A stretch of 64,000 nt of DNA from IMG/VR virus record IMGVR_UViG_3300021399_000098, one strand, 5' to 3'. The stretch's first letter is position 1. Each line of letters begins with the position of its first letter. This stretch comes from a virus (Duplodnaviria; Caudoviricetes). A program made the position numbers and the translations under genes. Positions 41,092-50,701 of the stretch are shown one piece after another. Under the pieces are notes generated by a model, which searched no databases, was not told where the DNA came from, and saw only the letters and a program-made list of their open reading frames with translations.

Positions 41092-43422
41092 CTAAATAGC
41101 ACCTTTTATATTGTTTACTTCAAACAATAAACCAAGTTTCTCATCATAAACTGCCGAATGAAGCAATAATGGAGACTCTTCATGTTTAGCAATTATAATC
41201 CAATTATTCATATTTAATTCATGGCCATTTCTCATACCATATTTATATTTGTATATATTTTCTGGTAACACCTCTTTAAAATAGTTAATATGGGTTTTAA
41301 TAGCATCATACTTTGTTTCACTATCATTTTCTATTTTATAAGACGGTATTTGTATGTTTCCACTAATGCTGCCATCACTTTTTTTTGCTCTAGCAAAAAT
41401 ATCTTCACTAACGCCCCTAAATCCAAGTCTAGATGATATTACTTTCGAATTTTTCTTTTTACTCGTTCTACGCGGTTTCATACTAGAATAAGATGCAGAT
41501 GATTCAATAAACAAACACTTCCAATACTTTTTAAACAGCCCTCTATTTTTATCACAAAATTCTGAATACAAATTATAAAAATCTTCTTTAGTTAATAATC
41601 TACCATTATAACCCTTTAAAAAATTACACCAAGCATAATATATTTTGATTCCTTCTTCACATTCATAAAATGCTTCAATAAACTTATTCGTTGATTTATT
41701 ATTTACAATAATACAGTTAAGTATCACTTCGGAATCATACTCATTAAATCTATTACCTCTACCTAACCTTTGTATTGTATTTTCTGGTGAAACAACCTCA
41801 TCATTTATTTCTATTGCAGAAATATCACAACCAGTTCCAATAATAGAAGTACCAAAAACTGTTTTTCTATCATTCAAATCGCTGTTTTTTGACCTATTTT
41901 CAAACACCTCATTTAATAGTCTTTCACTATCTTCTAACGTAAAATAAGCATGTAACAATATAGTGTTTTCATAGTTTCCATATTTATTACAAAATACTTG
42001 AGAATTTTTTACAGTATTGAAAATAGATATTGAATTATCATTTACATCAATTTTACTAATATCATCAATCTCTTTTACATTAATACGTATTTTCTTATCT
42101 TTATCATACACACCAAAATCTATAAATTTAACATTATCTCCCCAAAACATATTATGATATAATGGTGGTGTTGCTGATAGTAAAAGTGTTCTAGAATTAG
42201 TAACTCTAAATCTAGCACCGCACATTGATATAAAACTTGAAAACATTGGCTTTGAATTTGTATAATTTTGGAATTCATCAAACACAACATCACAAGTTAA
42301 CGTATTTAATAATTGATGTGCAGCACCATTCTTAACGTTCATACCTAGAAAACTATCTATGACAGAAACAATAATGTCTGAATTTTCATCACCTTCTTTA
42401 TAATCGCCACCAACTAAAAGGGCGATGGAAATATCATCTTGCCGATTAATAATAGCGACAATTTTATTTAATTCTCTAAAAGAGTTTTCTGCAATACTAA
42501 TAGTCGGTGTTACCCAAAACAGCTTTCTATTACTTTGAGTCCACCATCTGAATCCAACAAACGTTTTTCCAAAACCAGTGCTAGCCTTCAAAATTACATT
42601 TTCGTAACTAGATATTTCGGTAACAAGTTTTTCTTGCTTTTCCAATCTTACTTTGTCAAAACTTTCAATGTTTCTAAAATCAATGCCATTTATAGCTTCT
42701 TTAATACTTGAACACCCATAGCTATCAATTATATTATCCATAAATTTAATATCGTTAGATACAAACTTATCAATGTCTTTGTAAAATTTAGATACCATTC
42801 TGTCTGAATAGATTAATATTGCTCTCATAAGCAAAGACATAATTAATCTATCCATACTATCTACATCTAAGTCTCTAACTTTTGGGTACATTGTAACATT
42901 TGAAACTGTTATTTCACTTGATTCATTTTCAATTAATCCAACATCAATTCCGTCCTCTTTTAAAATGGCAGCAAAGAAAAGAAACATTTCTTTTGCATTA
43001 CCAATATCATTTTTAATCTTATAACATATATCATCTACTGATAAATCACCATCTACTTCTAATACATGGTGATATAAAATGGTTCTTTTTTCATCATCAC
43101 TAAGATTAGTATACTTATTCAAAAATGCCCATGTCATAACATCATGAGTTAACTCTAGACTATCTGAATCATCACTATTTGTTGAATTAGTTAGGCTTTT
43201 TTGGAAAGCCTCTGCTACCTTTAACAAATCATGACAAATACAAACCTTGGCAATAGATTTTCTTAGTTTCTCGTTAGAATACTTAAGACTCCATAAAGCA
43301 TCCTTCTTGATAATTCTATCAAAACACCTTAATCCAAAATTTTTGGTTGCTATTGAATGGTCGATAACTGTTGTCCCACCATTATTGAGACTCTTTGCTT
43401 TAAAAACGTTTAAATCTGTCAT
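41092..43422 (-). CDS. cas3: CRISPR-associated HD nuclease-helicase Cas3, no Cas2 fusion
   Basis: HD domain DHS, CHDLLK, HDV, LYHH, IYSDR. SF2 helicase ASTGFGKT, FDEFQ, LSATP, FNTV, LHA, QRLGRGNR. Adjacent to the CRISPR array. Confidence 0.92.
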   Translation of the reverse strand: MTDLNVFKAKSLNNGGTTVIDHSIATKNFGLRCFDRIIKKDALWSLKYSNEKLRKSIAKVCICHDLLKVAEAFQKSLTNSTNSDDSDSLELTHDVMTWAFLNKYTNLSDDEKRTILYHHVLEVDGDLSVDDICYKIKNDIGNAKEMFLFFAAILKEDGIDVGLIENESSEITVSNVTMYPKVRDLDVDSMDRLIMSLLMRAILIYSDRMVSKFYKDIDKFVSNDIKFMDNIIDSYGCSSIKEAINGIDFRNIESFDKVRLEKQEKLVTEISSYENVILKASTGFGKTFVGFRWWTQSNRKLFWVTPTISIAENSFRELNKIVAIINRQDDISIALLVGGDYKEGDENSDIIVSVIDSFLGMNVKNGAAHQLLNTLTCDVVFDEFQNYTNSKPMFSSFISMCGARFRVTNSRTLLLSATPPLYHNMFWGDNVKFIDFGVYDKDKKIRINVKEIDDISKIDVNDNSISIFNTVKNSQVFCNKYGNYENTILLHAYFTLEDSERLLNEVFENRSKNSDLNDRKTVFGTSIIGTGCDISAIEINDEVVSPENTIQRLGRGNRFNEYDSEVILNCIIVNNKSTNKFIEAFYECEEGIKIYYAWCNFLKGYNGRLLTKEDFYNLYSEFCDKNRGLFKKYWKCLFIESSASYSSMKPRRTSKKKNSKVISSRLGFRGVSEDIFARAKKSDGSISGNIQIPSYKIENDSETKYDAIKTHINYFKEVLPENIYKYKYGMRNGHELNMNNWIIIAKHEESPLLLHSAVYDEKLGLLFEVNNIKGAI

Positions 43423-43451: not shown

Positions 43452-43481
43452 CAAATGTACGAATAAAAATTAAATTATAAA
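43452..43481 (-). promoter_or_regulatory. Probable dedicated cas3 promoter between the array and cas3
   Basis: Minus strand -7 box TACATTTG at 43452-43459. The -33 box is imperfect (TTTA). Confidence 0.6.
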
Positions 43482-43503: not shown

Positions 43504-44392
43504 CTTTTTATTACATTAAGTTTTAACACTAAAAACACCAAGCCCATCTGTAGGATTGTTGGCTATTTGTTGTCATTACACTAAGTTTTAACACTAAAAA
43601 CATCAAACATCATGTTAATACGCTGTGTGCAATAGTTGTCATTACTCCAAGTTTTAACACTAAAAACACATAAGTTATATTCCTTAAATCGATAAAATTA
43701 TTGTCATTACATTAAGTTTTTATACTAAAAAACATTTGACCCATTCTTCTTGATAAAAATAAAGTGTTTGTCATTACATTAAGTTTTTATACTAAAAACG
43801 CCTTAATAACGATGTTCTTTGCCGCATAACGGTTGTCATTACACTAAGTTTTCATACTAAAAACACAACGCACTGATATTGATAAAGTGTATATCTAGTT
43901 GTCATTACATTAAGTTTCAATAAAAACACTTTGAGTTTTAAAGATGCTCATTATATATTTATTGTCATTACATTAGGTTTCCATACTAAAAACACCATAT
44001 AAAACGGTGAACATAAAACAACGCAAATTGTCATTACACTAAGTTTTCATACTAAAAACACCATACAGTGCAGCACACTTTGTTGTCTCTTCGTTGTCAT
44101 TACACTAAGTTTTTATACTAAAAACGCCCAAAGATTCAGCACGAACATGTGCATTATGGTTGTCATTACACTAAGTTTTCATACTAAAAACACCGAATCT
44201 CCTATCATCGTGTAACCGCATACAGTTGTCATTACACTAAGTTTTTATACTAAAAACACCTTCAGCAGAATGTGATTCAACTTCAGCAATGTTGTCATTA
44301 CACTAAGTTTTTATACTAAAAACACCTCCTAGAGCTTTTGCCTCATTGCTACGTGCGTTGTCATTACACTAAGTTTTCATACTAAAAACACC
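43504..44392 (-). CRISPR. CRISPR array: 14 repeats (36 nt), 13 spacers (29-30 nt)
   Basis: Plus-strand consensus GTTGTCATTACACTAAGTTTT(T/C)ATACTAAAAACACC. Repeat starts at 43504, 43569, 43635, 43700, 43767, 43832, 43898 (33 nt), 43961, 44027, 44093, 44159, 44225, 44291, 44357. Period ~66 nt. Degeneration increases leftward. The minus strand ends ATGACAAC. Confidence 0.98.
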
Positions 44393-44436
44393 TAATAACT
44401 CATAACAGTCTATATTATAAGTTATTAGACGATAAA

Positions 44437-45405
44437 TCACTCAGAAATTTTGGTAAATTCTTCTTTCCAATCAAACATTGGTGGTAATTTTCCTATTCCT
44501 AAAATCTTAACAACCCCACCATCCATAATGGTTGGCATTCTTCCATACTGTCTAAGTTCTTCTATCAGATTTTCATTTTCAATCTCAACTATAATTCTAC
44601 CATTATAAGTTACCTTTTTACTTTTAATGCCATGTCTTTCTAGAATTGGGCATTTTGAGGAACAATCACAATTATGAGAAGTCGTTGTATTCTTAATGTT
44701 TCCATTGAACACTGCTTCATACCATCCTTGTGATGAAATTATTTTTAATCTATCGCCATATTCTTTCTTGAAAGATTTCATTTCATCGCTATCCACATAC
44801 TTTTTAACTTCAACTAGGAATTCTGGAAAAGAGTATTTCTTAATGACATCTTCACAGCCAAACAACTTATTAAAAAAATCTTTTACAATCTCAAATAAAA
44901 GTTCATCACCATTCTTTTTTCTCTCATTCGATTTAACAAATGATGGATAATTAAACCATTTAGGTTTAAACTGTGCTTTAAAACTCTCCCACGTAAAATT
45001 ACCTTGATATTTTTCGCCACCAACAATTGTGGTAACTTTTCTATTTGAGTCAAAATTTGCCTTTTGGGACCAAAATGTGGTGGTTAAAAATCTTTTATCA
45101 CCTTTCTTTGTTATGTAGAAATATTGATTATCATATTTAACATAACTATGATTTAATGCCAAGTCATAAATCTCTTCATTCCTTGTAAAGATACTTTTCC
45201 TCATACTAGGAACTGGAGGGTATCCAAACAAATAATGAAGCATATTGCTAATATGATTAACCTTTAATGGGTTATTCAAGTCCACCTCATATGAGGTGGA
45301 CTTGTAAATTGAATTTTCATCCCTTCTATAGTCTGTTGATTTACTATTTGACTTGCTATCCACCATTAAATCAGCAGATTTAAATTCTAAATATAAATAA
45401 TACAT
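44437..45405 (-). CDS. cas5: Cas5-family RAMP with a large helical insertion (Cas5fv / I-F2-like)
   Basis: N-terminal strand YLYLEF; ISNMLHYLFG helix; central helical region; C-terminal YNGRIIVEI...PTIMDGGVVKILGI. Size (322 aa) and layout resemble Cas5fv as recalled. Lies between cas7 and the array. Confidence 0.7.
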   Translation of the reverse strand: MYYLYLEFKSADLMVDSKSNSKSTDYRRDENSIYKSTSYEVDLNNPLKVNHISNMLHYLFGYPPVPSMRKSIFTRNEEIYDLALNHSYVKYDNQYFYITKKGDKRFLTTTFWSQKANFDSNRKVTTIVGGEKYQGNFTWESFKAQFKPKWFNYPSFVKSNERKKNGDELLFEIVKDFFNKLFGCEDVIKKYSFPEFLVEVKKYVDSDEMKSFKKEYGDRLKIISSQGWYEAVFNGNIKNTTTSHNCDCSSKCPILERHGIKSKKVTYNGRIIVEIENENLIEELRQYGRMPTIMDGGVVKILGIGKLPPMFDWKEEFTKISE

Positions 45406-45407
45406 AA

Positions 45408-46484
45408 CTAAATACTCTCCGCAATACTTAAATCATCCTCTTCTTCTTTACTACTTTTTTTTGTTTTTTTGTTGGCTTTTTCCAACTTTTGCTCTTCATT
45501 CAATTTTACAATTTCTTGTATGTTCTTTTCTTGAGCCTTTTTATACTCTTCAATATATGTAGAATCCGCAACTTTATAAAAACAATCAATTTTGCTAAGA
45601 TTCATATTTTCAATATCATCAATTGAACGTATATTAATCCATTCATTCTCATAATCCAAGCTAACTAAATCATCACATAACTGAATTTTAAGCGATGTTG
45701 TCTTCATACTGCCCATTCTACCATGAGCTTCAACACGAAGCATACTAATCAAAGTATTTTTAAGTATACGCTCAATAACTTCATTGTTAAGAAGTATTCC
45801 ATATTCTGGATGAACACTTCTATTTGCTAAAAAATAACCTACTGTTGGATTTGACAAATCACCAAACTCTTGATTTAAAAACTCTTTAAATTTACCACTG
45901 CTTACCCAATCTGGTAGAACATACATTCTATCATTTTTTTCACTAGCTGATAAGAATTGAATTTCACACATATCTATGTTTCCCTCTGCTTCCCATACAG
46001 TCTTACCAAGAGTCTCCACATTGAACATAGATGTTGAAGCTCTTTTACCAGTTGTTGGGTCTACAACATTTGACGTTTGAACAGTAAACTGTGGTTTTGC
46101 GTCATTTACTAATGAAGCATCAGTAATGTTAAAACTACTTTTTTTGTGCAAGTTAATACCTTTTTTAAGAAGTAAAGTAGTTCCTCTACATAAAGTCTCC
46201 CACCTTGCAAGTTCATGCATTGTTATGTTTTCATTAATCGCATCATATGGAGAAACTTGATTACCAAATATATAATACCTCAACTTGTTTTTATCAATTT
46301 TAGGAACAGCCATTAATTTTTCACCGTCATTTTGATAATAATTTTTTTTCATGACAAGAGTATTATCATTAAACTTTCCATGACAACTATAAAGCTCGTT
46401 TAAGATACCAAGCTGATTTTCAAGGGAATCATAATTTACACAACCCTCTCCTTCAAAAATAATTTTAAATTTAATTGACCTCAT
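45408..46484 (-). CDS. cas7: Cas7 backbone, I-F2 (Cas7fv)-like
   Basis: SIKFKIIFEGEGCVNY, IDKNKLRYYIF, LCRG, KKSSFNITD, RASTSMFNVETLGKTVWEAEGNIDMCEIQFLS...DR and EYGILLNNE are colinear with motifs recalled from Shewanella Cas7fv. Confidence 0.82.
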   Translation of the reverse strand: MRSIKFKIIFEGEGCVNYDSLENQLGILNELYSCHGKFNDNTLVMKKNYYQNDGEKLMAVPKIDKNKLRYYIFGNQVSPYDAINENITMHELARWETLCRGTTLLLKKGINLHKKSSFNITDASLVNDAKPQFTVQTSNVVDPTTGKRASTSMFNVETLGKTVWEAEGNIDMCEIQFLSASEKNDRMYVLPDWVSSGKFKEFLNQEFGDLSNPTVGYFLANRSVHPEYGILLNNEVIERILKNTLISMLRVEAHGRMGSMKTTSLKIQLCDDLVSLDYENEWINIRSIDDIENMNLSKIDCFYKVADSTYIEEYKKAQEKNIQEIVKLNEEQKLEKANKKTKKSSKEEEDDLSIAESI

Positions 46485-46494
46485 ATTTTTTATT

Positions 46495-47160
46495 TTAAAT
46501 TAATTTAACAGAACCAAAACCAAAACCAGTTGATGAACCTAATCCTAGCTCATATATAAGTTTTCTTGCTTTTTTATTTCCTTTAACAAGTAACATCACT
46601 TGTGAACATATATTTTTACACCCATTTATATTATAAAAACGTATTTTAGAATTTTCTGGATGAAATAATTCAAAATCCAAAGTATTAGCTATTCTTTCAC
46701 TTAAACCATTATGTATCAATTTTTTAATTGACTTTTCTCTTAAATGAGGAACAAATTCATCATCTTCAAATGTTATGAATTTATCTTTAGTTTGTAACCT
46801 TATTGGACTAGTTGTACGAATTATATCGTATTCAGAATGAACATTAAATTCAGATAACTCAAATTTTCTAAATTTTAAATTTGAAATGTATAACTCATTT
46901 CTATTATATGTAAGACTTAAAACTATTTTATCAATAAACTCATTATCACATGACGAAATAGTTAAAAACGCCCCATCAACAAAAATCACATTACCATCTA
47001 GATATATCCCATTCTGTAAACGTGAAACACTATATTTAGAAAACTTCCCATGATAAGGATTATTTTCTCCCAAAAGTTTATTCACAAATCCATTAACTTT
47101 TTTGTAAGAAATGTTAACGTCAAATTCATCTTTTCCATCAAAAAATATTTTTATAATCAT
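46495..47160 (-). CDS. cas6: CRISPR-associated endoribonuclease Cas6 (generic I-B/III-like, not Cas6f/Csy4)
   Basis: YSVSRL, LTISS, TTSPIRL and the C-terminal G-rich loop YELGLGSSTGFGFG (GhGxxxxxGhG). Confidence 0.9.
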   Translation of the reverse strand: MIIKIFFDGKDEFDVNISYKKVNGFVNKLLGENNPYHGKFSKYSVSRLQNGIYLDGNVIFVDGAFLTISSCDNEFIDKIVLSLTYNRNELYISNLKFRKFELSEFNVHSEYDIIRTTSPIRLQTKDKFITFEDDEFVPHLREKSIKKLIHNGLSERIANTLDFELFHPENSKIRFYNINGCKNICSQVMLLVKGNKKARKLIYELGLGSSTGFGFGSVKLI

Positions 47161-47186: not shown

Positions 47187-47218
47187 CAAATATATATAAA
47201 AAAAATTGGATTAACAAA
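47187..47218 (-). promoter_or_regulatory. Bacteroidota-type promoter for cas6-cas7-cas5 (and possibly the array)
   Basis: Minus strand TTTG-N20-TATATTTG, 26 nt upstream of the cas6 ATG. Confidence 0.8.
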
Positions 47219-47723: not shown

Positions 47724-48296
47724 TTATTTATTTTTTCTCATTTCAGCAATAGGTCTAAGTATATCTTGAAATCCATCTATCTTACTACCTATATATTCTT
47801 TACAATAGCTTACTCTCGTAAGCCTATTCCTATATTTTTGGTTGTCAGCAGATTTCTTGTCTCTACCCTTTCCGTCAAACACAGTACCTCTAACATTTGG
47901 ATTCCTTGAAAGTGCCTCTCCAAACTTTCTATGCGCTGTTTTTATATACAGCTTATAATCATGCTCATCATCTGATAGTGACTTAACTATGCCACCAACG
48001 AAATTGAATATAATCGTGCTAAGTCCTAGTCCTTGATAGTCTTCAAGTATAACAATTCTACTTATAGAACAACCATAAGGTATTCCTTTTCTAGGCGTGT
48101 TAAGAATTCCAACGAATCCGACTGGAACACCATCCCATTCAAATAACAAACATTTACAAGACTTATTAATTTCAGCAGTCAAATAATGGCATTTTGAAAA
48201 TCCTAAGCTTTTCCACACACTAGGTTCTACTCTTCTAACAGTTAATTGAATGTTTGGTCTTTGTCCTTTAGAATGGTCAATCTTTATTACTTTCAT
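47724..48296 (-). CDS. GNAT-fold acetyltransferase of the phage ABC-ATPase-associated family
   Basis: FSKCHYL; ISRIVILEDYQGLGLS acetyl-CoA motif; YIKTAH. Likely start ATG 48296 (MKVIKIDH). Confidence 0.78.
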   Translation of the reverse strand: MKVIKIDHSKGQRPNIQLTVRRVEPSVWKSLGFSKCHYLTAEINKSCKCLLFEWDGVPVGFVGILNTPRKGIPYGCSISRIVILEDYQGLGLSTIIFNFVGGIVKSLSDDEHDYKLYIKTAHRKFGEALSRNPNVRGTVFDGKGRDKKSADNQKYRNRLTRVSYCKEYIGSKIDGFQDILRPIAEMRKNK

Positions 48297-49380
48297 TCGA
48301 GTTTTTTTTATTACAATTATTTTCATGATACTTAAATGTGTAACCGTGATGTTGTTTAAATTTACCTTTTAAACACATTCTAACACATTTTAAATCAAAA
48401 TTCATTTTCAAACACATTTGAGATATTGATGAATAAGTTTCTATAAAATTTCCATCTAAATCTAATAAATCAACTCTATGTGACGTTTTGCTGTGTGTAT
48501 TTTCAGATAGCATGTTTTCAGAATGAGATACCCATTCTAAATTTTCAACTTTATTATTTTTAGTATTAGAATCCTTATGATTAACTTCTGTGCTCCCATT
48601 CAAATTTGGTATAAAAGTTTGTGCAACAAGTCTATGGACAAAATACTGCTTCCCATTCACGAATACCCTCATATATCCCAAAGTATTATCACTTCCATAA
48701 GTAATTCTTTCTCGTCCTCTCCATTGCATTTTAACTCTTCCTAAATCACTTATTTCAATATTCAAAAAAGGATGTTTTTTAAAAATTTCCCCATACAGTT
48801 CTTTGTCTTTAACATATTCCCACTTATATCCACAAGCACTTTTTGCTTCACCTCTGCAAGCTCTTCTTATATTTTCGTATGGACGTTTGTAATTATTAAT
48901 ACCCAATTCTTTTACTGCTTCTTTTGTTGAATCAAATACTCCAACAACGTTATTAAAAAAATCAGTACATTTAACCTTTATTTTTCTATTATTTGTTTTA
49001 TTCGGTTTCCTTTTATTTCTTGAATTAATATTGTTGGCATTATCTTTTTGAGATAGGTATCTCAAATTTGAAAGGTAATTATTTAAAGGATTTGAATCTA
49101 TATGGTCTACTGTTAGTTCTTTTTTAATACCGTAAAAACATTCACAAATAAATCTATGCACAAGCATAATATATCTTTTACCGCATTTGTATAGTGATAC
49201 AATTAATCTACCATTTTGTATTGGCACTTGTTTTCTAATCTTATTAGTTTTTGTTCTTCTAATTTTTCCTAAATTAGAACCTTCATATTCAGTAAAAAAT
49301 GGATGCTGTCTCCATATTTCGGTAAAACCATTTATTTTCACACTTTCTCCTTTTTTATGATTAATTTGAATTGTTTTCAC
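48277..49380 (-). mobile_element. HNH homing endonuclease with duplicated HNH-NUMOD1-like modules
   Basis: Two HNH sites: VHRFICECF...VDHIDSNPLNN...NL and VHRLVAQTF...VNHKDSNTKNN...NLEW. Each is followed by a NUMOD1-like segment (ACGYKWEY; HHGYTFKY). GTG start. Confidence 0.88.
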
Positions 49381-49862
49381 TATCTTTTGCCTTTTTCCTT
49401 CAACTTATTTTCATAAGCCTCCATAGCTTTCTGTCTGTTTTCCTTCCGCTTGTTGTGACAGTCCTCACATTCAGCATAAATCCAATAGTTCTCATTTATT
49501 GGCTTGTCAATGTGTTTTCCGCACACTTCACAAGTGTGATATGATTTCTCTTCGGCATCCCTAATCATCTGCCTAAGTTCATCATTATACTTGTTAACGT
49601 AGAAGCACAAATAACCAAATTTCTCTTTTATCTGGTGTATTTCAAACTTATCTTCATGTTCTTCGTTATACTTGTTAATGTAGTCTATGATTGGCTGATA
49701 CAATTCTTTCCATCCTTCACCACATTCAATACCAAAAAGCTCATAAGGCCATTGTGGAGTAAATCTCTCAGGATGTTCTTTTTTTTCAAGTTCCTTTTCC
49801 TTTCTGTACTTCTCAATTATTTTTTGCAATTCTTGCAATCTTTCTTTTTTAGTCTGTTCCAT
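49380..49862 (-). CDS. Phage hypothetical protein with a C-terminal Zn ribbon
   Basis: GIECGEGW...QIKEKFGYLCFY...CEVCG...CEDC. Confidence 0.75.
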   Translation of the reverse strand: MEQTKKERLQELQKIIEKYRKEKELEKKEHPERFTPQWPYELFGIECGEGWKELYQPIIDYINKYNEEHEDKFEIHQIKEKFGYLCFYVNKYNDELRQMIRDAEEKSYHTCEVCGKHIDKPINENYWIYAECEDCHNKRKENRQKAMEAYENKLKEKGKR

Positions 49863-49989
49863 TTTTGTATGTATTAACTACCAAATCTATTGCCTCACCT
49901 AGATACTTGGGGTCTACCATAGGAATGTCAGCGCCCCTTCTCCATTTGTTGTGATGCTCCAATAACATAAGTGCCTCTTGTACGTTCAT
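49849..49989 (-). CDS. 46-aa small protein (MNVQEALMLLEHHNKWRRGADIPMVDPKYLGEAID...)
   Basis: Manual translation; fills the gap between the ABC ATPase and the 160-aa gene with tight coupling. Confidence 0.7.
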   Translation of the reverse strand: MNVQEALMLLEHHNKWRRGADIPMVDPKYLGEAIDLVVNTYKNGTD

Positions 49990-49990
49990 T

Positions 49991-50701
49991 TTAATTGATT
50001 TTTATAGCATCGCTCAACACGTCATTTGGCATTACACTTTGATGTACCGAATAGTCCTTCCCATCCACATATTCCATCTTTTCCATTTCAACGTTTCCGT
50101 CTTCATCCTTATGGTTAAGATTGAACACATAGTCTGGCTGCAACCATTCAATAATGTCAAAATGACACGATGCAATTATTATCTTCAAATTGTTCTGTCT
50201 TATATATCTCTGCAATGCATAACTCATTGACTTTGCAACGTCTCTGTTCACAACCGATGTAAACTCATCCACATAGATTATTTGCCCCTTTCCAGTCTCG
50301 TAGATGGCTTTGCATAGGTCTAGCCTTGCTCTTTCACCATTTGATAATTCTTGAGGCTTACGAAGCCATGCAGGAACTGATGCAAGGCCAACTCCACATA
50401 GAAGGTCACATGCCTCTTCCTCTGTCAAATTGGGGAATTGGCTTATGACAGCCTTTTGATAATCATACTCTATAGGTTTAATATCACCTATTTCCCTTAA
50501 AATAGTGGATTTTCCGCTTCCACTCTTTCCACATATCAGCATTATATTCCATTCACTAGCATTCATTGCATCCATGTCTTCCTTTGATGGAATGGGAACT
50601 TCTGTCATCGTAAGTTCCTTATTCTGAATGTCATAGTTATCATATAGATACTGTGTGTAGTTATCATTTACGATTTTAGACTCTAATAGTATTTTTCCCA
50701 T
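49991..50701 (-). CDS. ABC-type ATPase (phage family usually fused to a GNAT domain)
   Basis: Walker A GKSGSGKST; signature LSNGERARL; Walker B YVDEFTS; H-loop ASCH; no transmembrane segments. Confidence 0.85.
   Translation of the reverse strand: MGKILLESKIVNDNYTQYLYDNYDIQNKELTMTEVPIPSKEDMDAMNASEWNIMLICGKSGSGKSTILREIGDIKPIEYDYQKAVISQFPNLTEEEACDLLCGVGLASVPAWLRKPQELSNGERARLDLCKAIYETGKGQIIYVDEFTSVVNRDVAKSMSYALQRYIRQNNLKIIIASCHFDIIEWLQPDYVFNLNHKDEDGNVEMEKMEYVDGKDYSVHQSVMPNDVLSDAIKIN

Follow-up and report, generated by a model that had tools for sequence, protein, structure and literature searches.

The subject of this analysis is a CRISPR array, together with an adjoining set of cas genes, on a 64,000-nt stretch of phage DNA (IMG/VR record IMGVR_UViG_3300021399_000098), the whole of which is referred to here as the window. 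The array occupies positions 43504–44392 on the minus strand and comprises 14 repeats of 36 nt and 13 unique spacers, with a period of 63–67 nt. It is flanked on one side by an operon of cas6, a cas7fv-like gene and a cas5-like gene and on the other by a stand-alone cas3, all of them on the minus strand, the order being cas6, cas7fv-like, cas5-like, a 44-nt gap, the array and cas3. An exact protein match places the locus on a 401,247-bp phage scaffold from a sheep-rumen metagenome (ENA ERZ28612961, scaffold_7). An earlier reading of this DNA, made from its letters alone (hereafter the original prediction), had located the array at exactly these positions, as our parse of the repeats confirmed, and had proposed that a type I locus without adaptation genes carries an array of the shape found in type II and Bacteroidota type VI-B systems, loaded by the Cas1-Cas2 of the host.

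Several related phages served for comparison: L001, a rumen relative in IMG/VR with the same locus, 16 repeats and a Cas7 93% identical to that of the window; L003, a more distant relative (Cas7 57%); and L006, L007 and L008, near-identical phages from three different samples. The repeat of the window, GTTGTCATTACACTAAGTTTTCATACTAAAAACACC on the plus strand, becomes GGTGTTTTTAGTATGAAAACTTAGTGTAATGACAAC when read on the minus strand, which is the one transcribed. The spacer lengths, starting at the cas5 side, are 30, 30, 30, 30, 30, 30, 27, 30, 29, 31, 29, 30 and 29 nt, that is, eight of 30 nt, three of 29 nt, one of 31 nt and one of 27 nt, the last adjoining an internally deleted repeat; the predicted geometry of 36-nt repeats and 30-nt spacers (36/30) therefore holds, and the tally that came with it, ten spacers of 30 nt and three of 29 nt, was a small miscount. 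The six repeats on the cas5 side (44027–44392) depart from the consensus by at most two bases, the near-uniformity at the right-hand end having likewise been noted in the original prediction, and the copies then decay stepwise leftward, toward cas3, to a degenerate terminal repeat at the trailer end (43504–43539, minus strand); the array of L001 ends in the same degenerate copy. Regular near-identical repeats, unique spacers and a degenerate last repeat are what is expected of CRISPR arrays in general, and no further repeat copy or anti-repeat was found anywhere else in the 64 kb. A hairpin-type Cas6 site was considered and dropped, because shuffled sequences fold just as well as the repeats of the window, L003 and L006; a repeat that is unstructured, as these appear to be, fits Cas6b-type substrates. 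Between the cas5 stop codon and the first repeat lies a leader of 44 nt (44393–44436, minus strand), almost the whole of which forms one imperfect palindrome, TAATAACTTATAA...TTATGAGTTATTA. It is nearly identical in L001, and the leader of L003 differs in sequence yet is also palindromic, which suggests that a structure has been conserved. The 44 nt contain no TAnnTTTG box.

The first gene of the operon, cas6 (46495–47160, minus strand), encodes a Cas6b-like endoribonuclease of 221 amino acids (Pfam Cas_Cas6_C, E-value 1.1e-9; PADLOC Cas6b, 4.5e-29), and the second (45408–46484, minus strand) a Cas7fv-like backbone subunit of 358 amino acids (PADLOC Cas7fv, 9e-8; Cas7f, 1.8e-5), homologues of which carry the precomputed Pfam family PF28157, Cas7fv-like. 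The third (44437–45405, minus strand; 322 amino acids) has no sequence-family match in the Pfam and PADLOC scans and was recognized as cas5-like by structure only. The AlphaFold model, built from seven homologues with a mean predicted local distance difference test (pLDDT) score of 73, found its best structural match in 5o6u_F of the I-Fv Cascade (Z 8.8, a moderate score; root mean square deviation 3.7, 132 aligned), followed by 9g44_B of I-F2 (Z 7.5) and then by Cas5 chains of types I-A, I-E and I-C. On the far side of the array, cas3 (41092–43422, minus strand) encodes a protein of 776 amino acids with an N-terminal HD nuclease domain beginning at about residue 17, a superfamily 2 helicase and neither a Cas2 domain nor a Cas2 fusion; it matches the Pfam families DEAD (1.1e-13), Cas3-like_C_2 (5e-9) and, weakly, Cas3_HD (1e-3), and the PADLOC profiles Cas3fv (1.7e-36) and Cas3b (1.2e-32, across residues 47–724, nearly the full length).

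Cas3 (HD nuclease and superfamily 2 helicase) occurs here together with Cas6 and with proteins resembling Cas7fv and Cas5, which marks the locus as type I, in agreement with the original prediction. The locus has no Cas8 or Cas11, and the cas genes of the operon abut, with gaps of 2–10 nt, so that there is no room for a large subunit. The Cas7fv-like protein, the Cas5fv-like fold and the lack of Cas8 and Cas11 are all features of I-F2 (I-Fv), whereas Cas6f, a Cas2-Cas3 fusion, a Cas1 of its own and 28-nt repeats with 32-nt spacers are features of I-F2 that the locus lacks. Resemblance to I-B is confined to Cas6, and the array is 36/30 rather than about 30/36. The label I-F is accordingly too narrow for the locus, the Cas6 being Cas6b-like and the Cas3 free of a Cas2 fusion. 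Because of the Cas6b, Cas7fv and Cas3b-type matches and the I-Fv-like Cas5 fold, the locus is, as judged from sequence and model, best described as a Cas8-less minimal type I system of mixed ancestry and not as I-F proper. Neither cas9 (with a trans-activating CRISPR RNA) nor cas13b stands next to the array, whose neighbours are the cas5-like gene and cas3.

When 1.84 billion cluster representatives were searched with a profile of phage Cas6 sequences, 588 relatives were obtained. Sampled homologues lie mostly in phage-like gene contexts (that of L144, for instance, is beside phage-like genes), and, Flammeovirga apart, the 19 sampled relatives are unnamed metagenome proteins. The nearest named bacterial relative is that of Flammeovirga (profile E-value 5e-21), where cas6 belongs to a canonical I-B operon (Cas6b, Cas5b, Cas3b, Cas8b, Cas7b, Cas4, Cas1b and Cas2) with an array of 30-nt repeats ending in ATTGAAAT and spacers of 35–37 nt. 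The 36/30 geometry of the phage therefore did not travel with Cas6, and the nearest named bacterial relative did not prove to be a type I locus whose own Cas1 makes 30-nt spacers, a finding that would have spoken against the original prediction. The Cas7 of the window and the Cas7b of Flammeovirga are unrelated by BLASTP (E 0.07).

A promoter of the Bacteroidota type, TTTG-N20-TAnnTTTG, lies at 47187–47218 on the minus strand, 27 nt before the ATG of cas6. Such motifs occur 11 times in the window, against 5.1 expected, and all except one are upstream of genes and correctly oriented (10/11). The promoter before cas6 probably drives cas6-cas7-cas5, with read-through into the array. A motif kept in L001, TACATTTG (43452–43459, minus strand), may, we infer, serve as the −7 box of a promoter of cas3's own.

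No gene for Cas1, Cas2 or Cas4 was found among the window open reading frames (ORFs) scanned with Pfam and PADLOC, which included all non-overlapped ORFs of 55–100 amino acids and left aside seven very large ones (670–2448 amino acids, apparently structural). The absence of adaptation genes, as originally claimed, is thus borne out for the scanned ORFs of the window, that is, for 64 of the 401 kb of this phage. Likewise, on ten related phage contigs the genes called in the flanks of the locus, up to about 10 kb out (less at contig ends), include none of the three, nor does a 26.7-kb IMG/VR relative.

The array nevertheless differs between close relatives, and it does so chiefly at the leader. 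The five leader-proximal spacers of the window, W1–W5 (44063–44356, minus strand), are absent from L001, which has six private spacers at its own cas5 end, and they mark the growing end of the array; they are followed by an older block (W6, W8, W9, W10 and W11; 43671–44026, minus strand) that L001 holds in the same order with 0–3 mismatches, W7 being specific to the window. The G+C content of W1–W5 is 37–50% and that of the older spacers 17–41%. Uniform leader-proximal and decayed distal repeats are seen in the window, L001, L003 and L007 alike. The derived variants of the repeat in L003 form a nested series, with C8 in repeats R1–R5 and G36 in R1–R4, a pattern that serial duplication of repeat 1 would yield exactly. 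The arrays of L006, L007 and L008 differ in the first spacer and also in some internal units. Polar gain of spacers at the 44357 end, for which a comparison of related phages had been proposed, was therefore found, with private spacers in both the window and L001. Several comparisons, then, say that the array gains spacers at its leader (cas5) end, as far as can be read from the sequences, with recombination also contributing. In the L006 group (L006 12890–13340, L007 12890–13560 and L008 12890–13420) several repeats duplicate their last 15 nt (TAAGGTAATCACAAC twice), giving 51-nt units, which may be the footprint of imprecise integration or of slippage.

The form of the repeat is shared well beyond these close relatives. 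Five phage lineages, among them L003, the L006 group, L144 and L111, with Cas6 proteins as little as about 45% identical or linked at a profile E-value of 6e-35, share a repeat length of 36 nt and the repeat end GTAAT(G/C)ACAA(C/A), or one close to it, with spacers mostly of 29–30 nt; the variant tail in L111 is GGTAATTTCAAC (2/3 copies), and L144 has a single spacer, of 27 nt. On the bacterial side we scanned one genome for each of 185,579 species for two TAAT(C/G)ACAAC motifs 54–58 nt apart, with a period of about 66 nt, and true arrays with such a pair were found almost only in Bacteroidota. Where the flanks were checked, the arrays proved to be II-C or VI-B: Cas9 and type II Cas1 lie beside two of them (L021 and L096), type II Cas1 beside three (L028, L103 and L094), Cas9 beside one from Prevotella sp. 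P3-122 (L086) and Cas13b beside another (L080). The statement that a 36/30 shape is typical of type II and Bacteroidota VI-B arrays is thereby upheld. In five of the II-C arrays the flank upstream of the repeat in its ...ACAAC orientation closes with a conserved GGTAT (or CTAT), and in three of these five the far repeat is degenerate; the II-C leader and the degenerate far end therefore give these arrays the same polarity as those of the phages. The phage arrays accordingly have the marks of the II-C/VI-B family, namely 36/30 geometry and a leader-distal TAAT(C/G)ACAAC, the host arrays having been preselected by that tail. Outside the selected tail, the repeat of the L006 group agrees with a Prevotella II-C repeat at 17/26 positions (p = 0.0025). 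An isolated mini-array was also observed in a Prevotellaceae metagenome-assembled genome (MAG) from the same sheep-rumen project (L075, minus strand, about 960–1061 of the reverse complement); in it a single 30-nt spacer lies between two identical 36-nt repeats that end in GGTAATCACAAC, and an inverted repeat of about 25 nt flanks the whole.

The spacers give some indication of what the system is aimed at. Against GenBank phages, the spacers of the window, L007 and L003 gave matches at chance level only; in IMG/VR, five 20-mer cores (from W1, W3, W4 and spacers 1 and 3 of L001) matched nothing other than the arrays themselves; and no window spacer has a self-target within the 64 kb. A search of about 400 genomes from the family of a Prevotella MAG yielded three usable matches. 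W5 matches a host-family genome at 29/30 positions (E 1.4e-6 per genome; L138:9388–9417, equivalent to G152:C44:55387–55416), in an ORF-free gap 235 nt past the stop codon of a tyrosine integrase of 459 amino acids and near a serine invertase and small ORFs, so that the target is a candidate integrated element or satellite in a Prevotella-family genome. W1 agrees at 25/29 positions with a umuC-like gene in a Prevotella MAG that comes from the same sheep-rumen project; its four mismatches are all spaced by multiples of three, the pattern that a coding homologue would show after divergence, and a spacer of L003 matches another genome at 27/29. Weak matches that run from the spacer into the repeat ends (L127, L141, L142 and L147) were treated as chance or low-complexity matches. 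In the L006 group (L006:8636–8665 and L006:6630–6657, also present in L007 and L008) two array spacers match the phage itself, at 30/30 and 26/28, and both self-protospacers are preceded by TATTA; the matches point to tolerated self-targeting, to self-regulation or to spacers derived from close relatives.

We propose that an integrase of the host, most likely the II-C Cas1-Cas2, loads the phage array in trans, and on the sequences and comparisons available we hold this to be about an even chance. With no spacer-adding enzyme nearby and an array shaped like those of Bacteroidota Cas9 and Cas13b systems, the enzyme used is probably that of the host; no adaptation genes were found in the 64 kb, yet leader-end spacers vary among close relatives, as acquisition in trans would have it. 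A possible donor is also common, type II Cas1 being present in roughly a third of 391 sampled host-family genomes (166 genomes reached E ≤ 1e-20, about 130 of them with strong type II matches). More tentatively, and somewhat short of an even chance, the whole family of large Bacteroidota phages may pair a type I interference module with a repeat that serves the host II-C integrase. It is interesting to speculate, with no greater assurance, that the phage is in this way a third, viral client of II-C/VI-B cross-talk, aimed at rival mobile elements of the host.

A number of observations weigh against this proposal. The first 26 nt of the window repeat agree with host repeats at only 12/26 positions (p = 0.34), like shuffled sequences, and the 5' end of the repeat is GGTG, not GTTG. 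Neither the GTDB species genomes nor the JGI metagenomes yielded a host array whose repeat is near-identical: a strict repeat pattern had no match in the 185,579 species genomes, and a relaxed one recovered from the JGI metagenomes the same phages and four single-match contigs only. A rumen Prevotella II-C array (L079) has 47-nt repeats with the same end, so that a II-C ruler would not obviously copy 36 nt; the same repeat-length puzzle has been remarked for VI-B arrays (PMC8092290). The 44-nt leader has no clear likeness to the GGTAT-ended II-C leaders. The 5' flanks of the three usable protospacers, too few for a protospacer-adjacent motif (PAM) to be called, are GGTG, AGGT and CGTA, with no shared 3' motif, and the genome that holds the W5 protospacer, which may be incomplete, showed no type II Cas1. 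Type II adaptation, moreover, selects PAMs through Cas9, as is established for II-A, and a type I effector may not be served by that selection. Along the six newest repeats of the window the base at position 15 is G, A, A, G, A, G, which is not a nested order, and L001 and the window have different spacers at the trailer end too, so that recombination between arrays contributes to the differences. Finally, a cas1-cas2 pair could lie in the other 340 kb or so of the phage, of which 64 of 401 kb were examined. Likeness to the putative donor thus lies in the geometry and the repeat end, and beyond these there are three protospacer flanks and no near-identical host repeat. Of the original idea of a borrowed Cas1-Cas2, what stands is the geometry, the repeat end and the gain at the leader end; the missing host counterpart, the chance-level agreement of the 26-nt part and the 47-nt repeats of L079 tell against it.

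We read the array as the live array of this phage-borne type I system, and the mechanism that we propose is as follows. The host-type promoter upstream of cas6 would drive minus-strand transcription of cas6-cas7-cas5, which would run on across the 44-nt leader and so reach the array. Cas6 would cleave the largely unstructured repeat, probably leaving an 8-nt 5' handle, AUGACAAC, on each CRISPR RNA, and five copies of Cas7 together with Cas5, a presumed stoichiometry, would suit a 30-nt guide. Cas3 would degrade the matching DNA, some targets at least being, in all likelihood, integrated mobile elements in Prevotella-family genomes. Each new spacer would be inserted next to cas5, the 36-nt repeat being copied with it, through an integrase that is most likely the host type II-C Cas1-Cas2 acting in trans. 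In its length, in the size of its spacers and in its leader-distal ...TAAT(C/G)ACAAC, the phage repeat conforms to the II-C/VI-B array family.

Adaptation and effector modules can be separated, and one alternative is that the phage encodes its own cas1-cas2, possibly with cas4, elsewhere in its 401-kb genome, in which case the ruler of that enzyme would set the 36/30 geometry. The search covered 64 kb, with about 340 kb of scaffold beyond, and repeats of the window type lack a close host counterpart. However, the related phages do not point that way, since cas1, cas2 and cas4 were absent from the genes called up to about 10 kb around all ten related loci, and nearly all CRISPR systems of huge phages are reported to be without Cas1, Cas2 and Cas4 (PMC7162821, PMC13037316). 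We regard an integrase of the phage's own as unlikely.

Alternatively, no integrase may be involved, spacers changing solely by homologous recombination between repeats, with the arrays of co-infecting related phages or with host arrays of the VI-B/II-C type. Among its T4-like functions the phage has a recombinase resembling UvsX and a protein resembling gp32, and such exchange would account for the alternation of G and A at repeat position 15 along the newest repeats, for the trailer-end differences between the window and L001 and for the internal gains or losses of units (W7, L10). Recombination reshuffles spacers, however, and leaves the origin of new ones unexplained; every array compared has private leader-end spacers behind identical repeats, the nested variants of L003 look like the product of serial duplication of repeat 1, and no host array was found with a repeat close enough to recombine. 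As the only source of change, recombination is in our estimation rather unlikely.

A host module of another kind, whether type I-B, I-C or III or a Cas1 fused to reverse transcriptase (RT-Cas1), might also load the array. The Cas6 is of the I-B type, the TATTA directly 5' of both self-protospacers of the L006 group is more like a type I PAM in position than like the spaced II-C motif, and some host-family genomes have non-type-II Cas1 matches, although weaker ones (E about 1e-20 to 1e-36); gut VI-B systems have reportedly recruited RT-Cas1 (PMC11662929). Set against this, the I-B module to which the Cas6 is related makes 30/36 arrays and not 36/30, and both the geometry and the ACAAC end belong to the II-C/VI-B family, which makes a donor of this kind distinctly improbable. 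That the array is a decaying relic that gains no spacers and is perhaps unused is very improbable indeed: its distal half is degenerate and no spacer target was found in the phage databases, but the reading frames of all four cas genes are intact, in many relatives as well as here, the repeats nearest the leader are uniform, private new spacers occur in close relatives and one spacer matches a host-family genome at 29/30.

The surroundings of the locus are those of a large phage. The window encodes NrdD, a DnaB-like helicase, the UvsX-like recombinase, gp32, a thymidine kinase, a gp25 baseplate protein and a homing HNH endonuclease, and the locus as a whole has no similarity to known phages; a phage of about 400 kb infecting a Prevotella-like Bacteroidota host is the best explanation of the carrier. 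Beside the CRISPR locus, in the region 47724–50701, a protein of the phrog_11143 family is encoded in two pieces on the minus strand (49991–50701 and 47724–48326), between which lie an ORF of 160 amino acids and an HNH/NUMOD homing endonuclease of 367 amino acids (48277–49380). A relative, L114 (660–2506), has the same neighbourhood without the homing endonuclease, which is therefore a presence/absence polymorphism beside the CRISPR locus. Gene order also varies within the phage family: in L111 (7604–13842) cas3 comes first and an extra gene for a protein of 205 amino acids lies between cas6 and cas7, and in L113 (6145–11254) only 108 nt separate the cas5-like gene from cas3, no array having been found in its 16.8 kb. 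Two independent assemblies of the same phage lineage, L116 and L114, both end about 74 nt past the cas5-like gene, near the junction of leader and first repeat; array heterogeneity in the population would give contig breaks of this sort.

The closest precedent for loading by a host II-C integrase is found in Flavobacterium columnare, in which II-C Cas1-Cas2 loads Cas1-less VI-B arrays whose repeats share with those of II-C only the leader-distal GTTGT/ACAAC (Hoikkala et al., 2021; PMC8092290), as the original prediction correctly quoted. The phage locus resembles that system in being a Cas1-less effector locus with a 36/30 array, read from leader to array, with an ACAAC end and spacers that vary between strains. 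It differs in that the effector is a DNA-targeting type I Cascade with Cas3 rather than Cas13b; in that the array is viral, with donor and recipient in separate genomes, a GGTG 5' repeat end and a leader of 44 nt; and in that acquisition is read from sequence comparison. The motif upstream of F. columnare VI-B protospacers is reportedly TTTANNNNN.

Among phages, the huge phages of Al-Shayeb et al. (2020; PMC7162821) are alike in their very large size, compact arrays, lack of Cas1, Cas2 and Cas4 and spacers aimed at other mobile elements, and those authors suggested that such systems may use host proteins; the systems they described are, by contrast, an I-C variant without Cas6 and class 2 systems, and the likeness of repeats to those of the host was noted there for phages without interference genes, whereas the phage studied here has a full set. 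Vibrio phage ICP1 likewise encodes a type I system, and the W5 target beside an integrase recalls the targeting of PLE by ICP1, but ICP1 has its own Cas1 and Cas2-3 and canonical I-F repeats. I-F2 (I-Fv) of Shewanella putrefaciens CN-32 (PDB 5O6U; PMC4937334) shares the absence of large and small subunits, the Cas7fv-like backbone and the Cas5 fold (Z 8.8). Its Cas6 is Cas6f, its Cas3 is fused to Cas2, it encodes Cas1 itself and its repeats and spacers measure 28 and 32 nt, in contrast to the Cas6b-like Cas6, stand-alone Cas3 and 36/30 array of the window, in which no Cas1 was found. Plasmid IV-A3 arrays are reportedly loaded by the Cas1-Cas2 of a host I-E system (Benz et al., 2024, as cited in PMC11656645), and these plasmids too are mobile elements with an effector and an array, no adaptation module and a host integrase of another type. 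That pairing is within class 1, with closely similar repeats, leaders and PAMs, whereas the donor proposed here is class 2, the likeness is one of geometry and a single repeat end and the carrier is a phage of lytic type.

CRISPR systems without Cas1 in huge phages and cross-type adaptation in trans have thus already been published (PMC7162821, PMC8092290, PMC11656645). No published description was found of a family combining Cas6b, Cas7fv-like, Cas5fv-like and Cas3 proteins, or of its class-2-style repeat, in the literature covered, outside which lies Al-Shayeb et al. (2022, Cell). What appears to be new is the pairing, in a phage family, of a type I effector with a repeat in the style of Bacteroidota class 2 systems, along with comparative evidence of spacer gain at the leader end.

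Phage CRISPR systems that lack Cas1 and Cas2 are common, and how their arrays stay current is largely conjecture. The present phage family offers a concrete case, with the effector genes of type I, an array of the Bacteroidota class 2 kind and, in related phages, new spacers beside the leader. As a compact type I effector that dispenses with Cas8 and uses a 30-nt guide, the family also deserves attention for itself. Were the array indeed loaded by the host II-C Cas1-Cas2, this would help to explain why one end of the repeat is conserved, and it would constrain models of how an integrase measures its repeat, 36 nt in the phage as against 47 nt in L079. Adaptation modules would then be a resource shared across CRISPR classes and across the boundary between virus and host, and a virus would be updating a DNA-targeting memory through the immune system of the cell that it infects.

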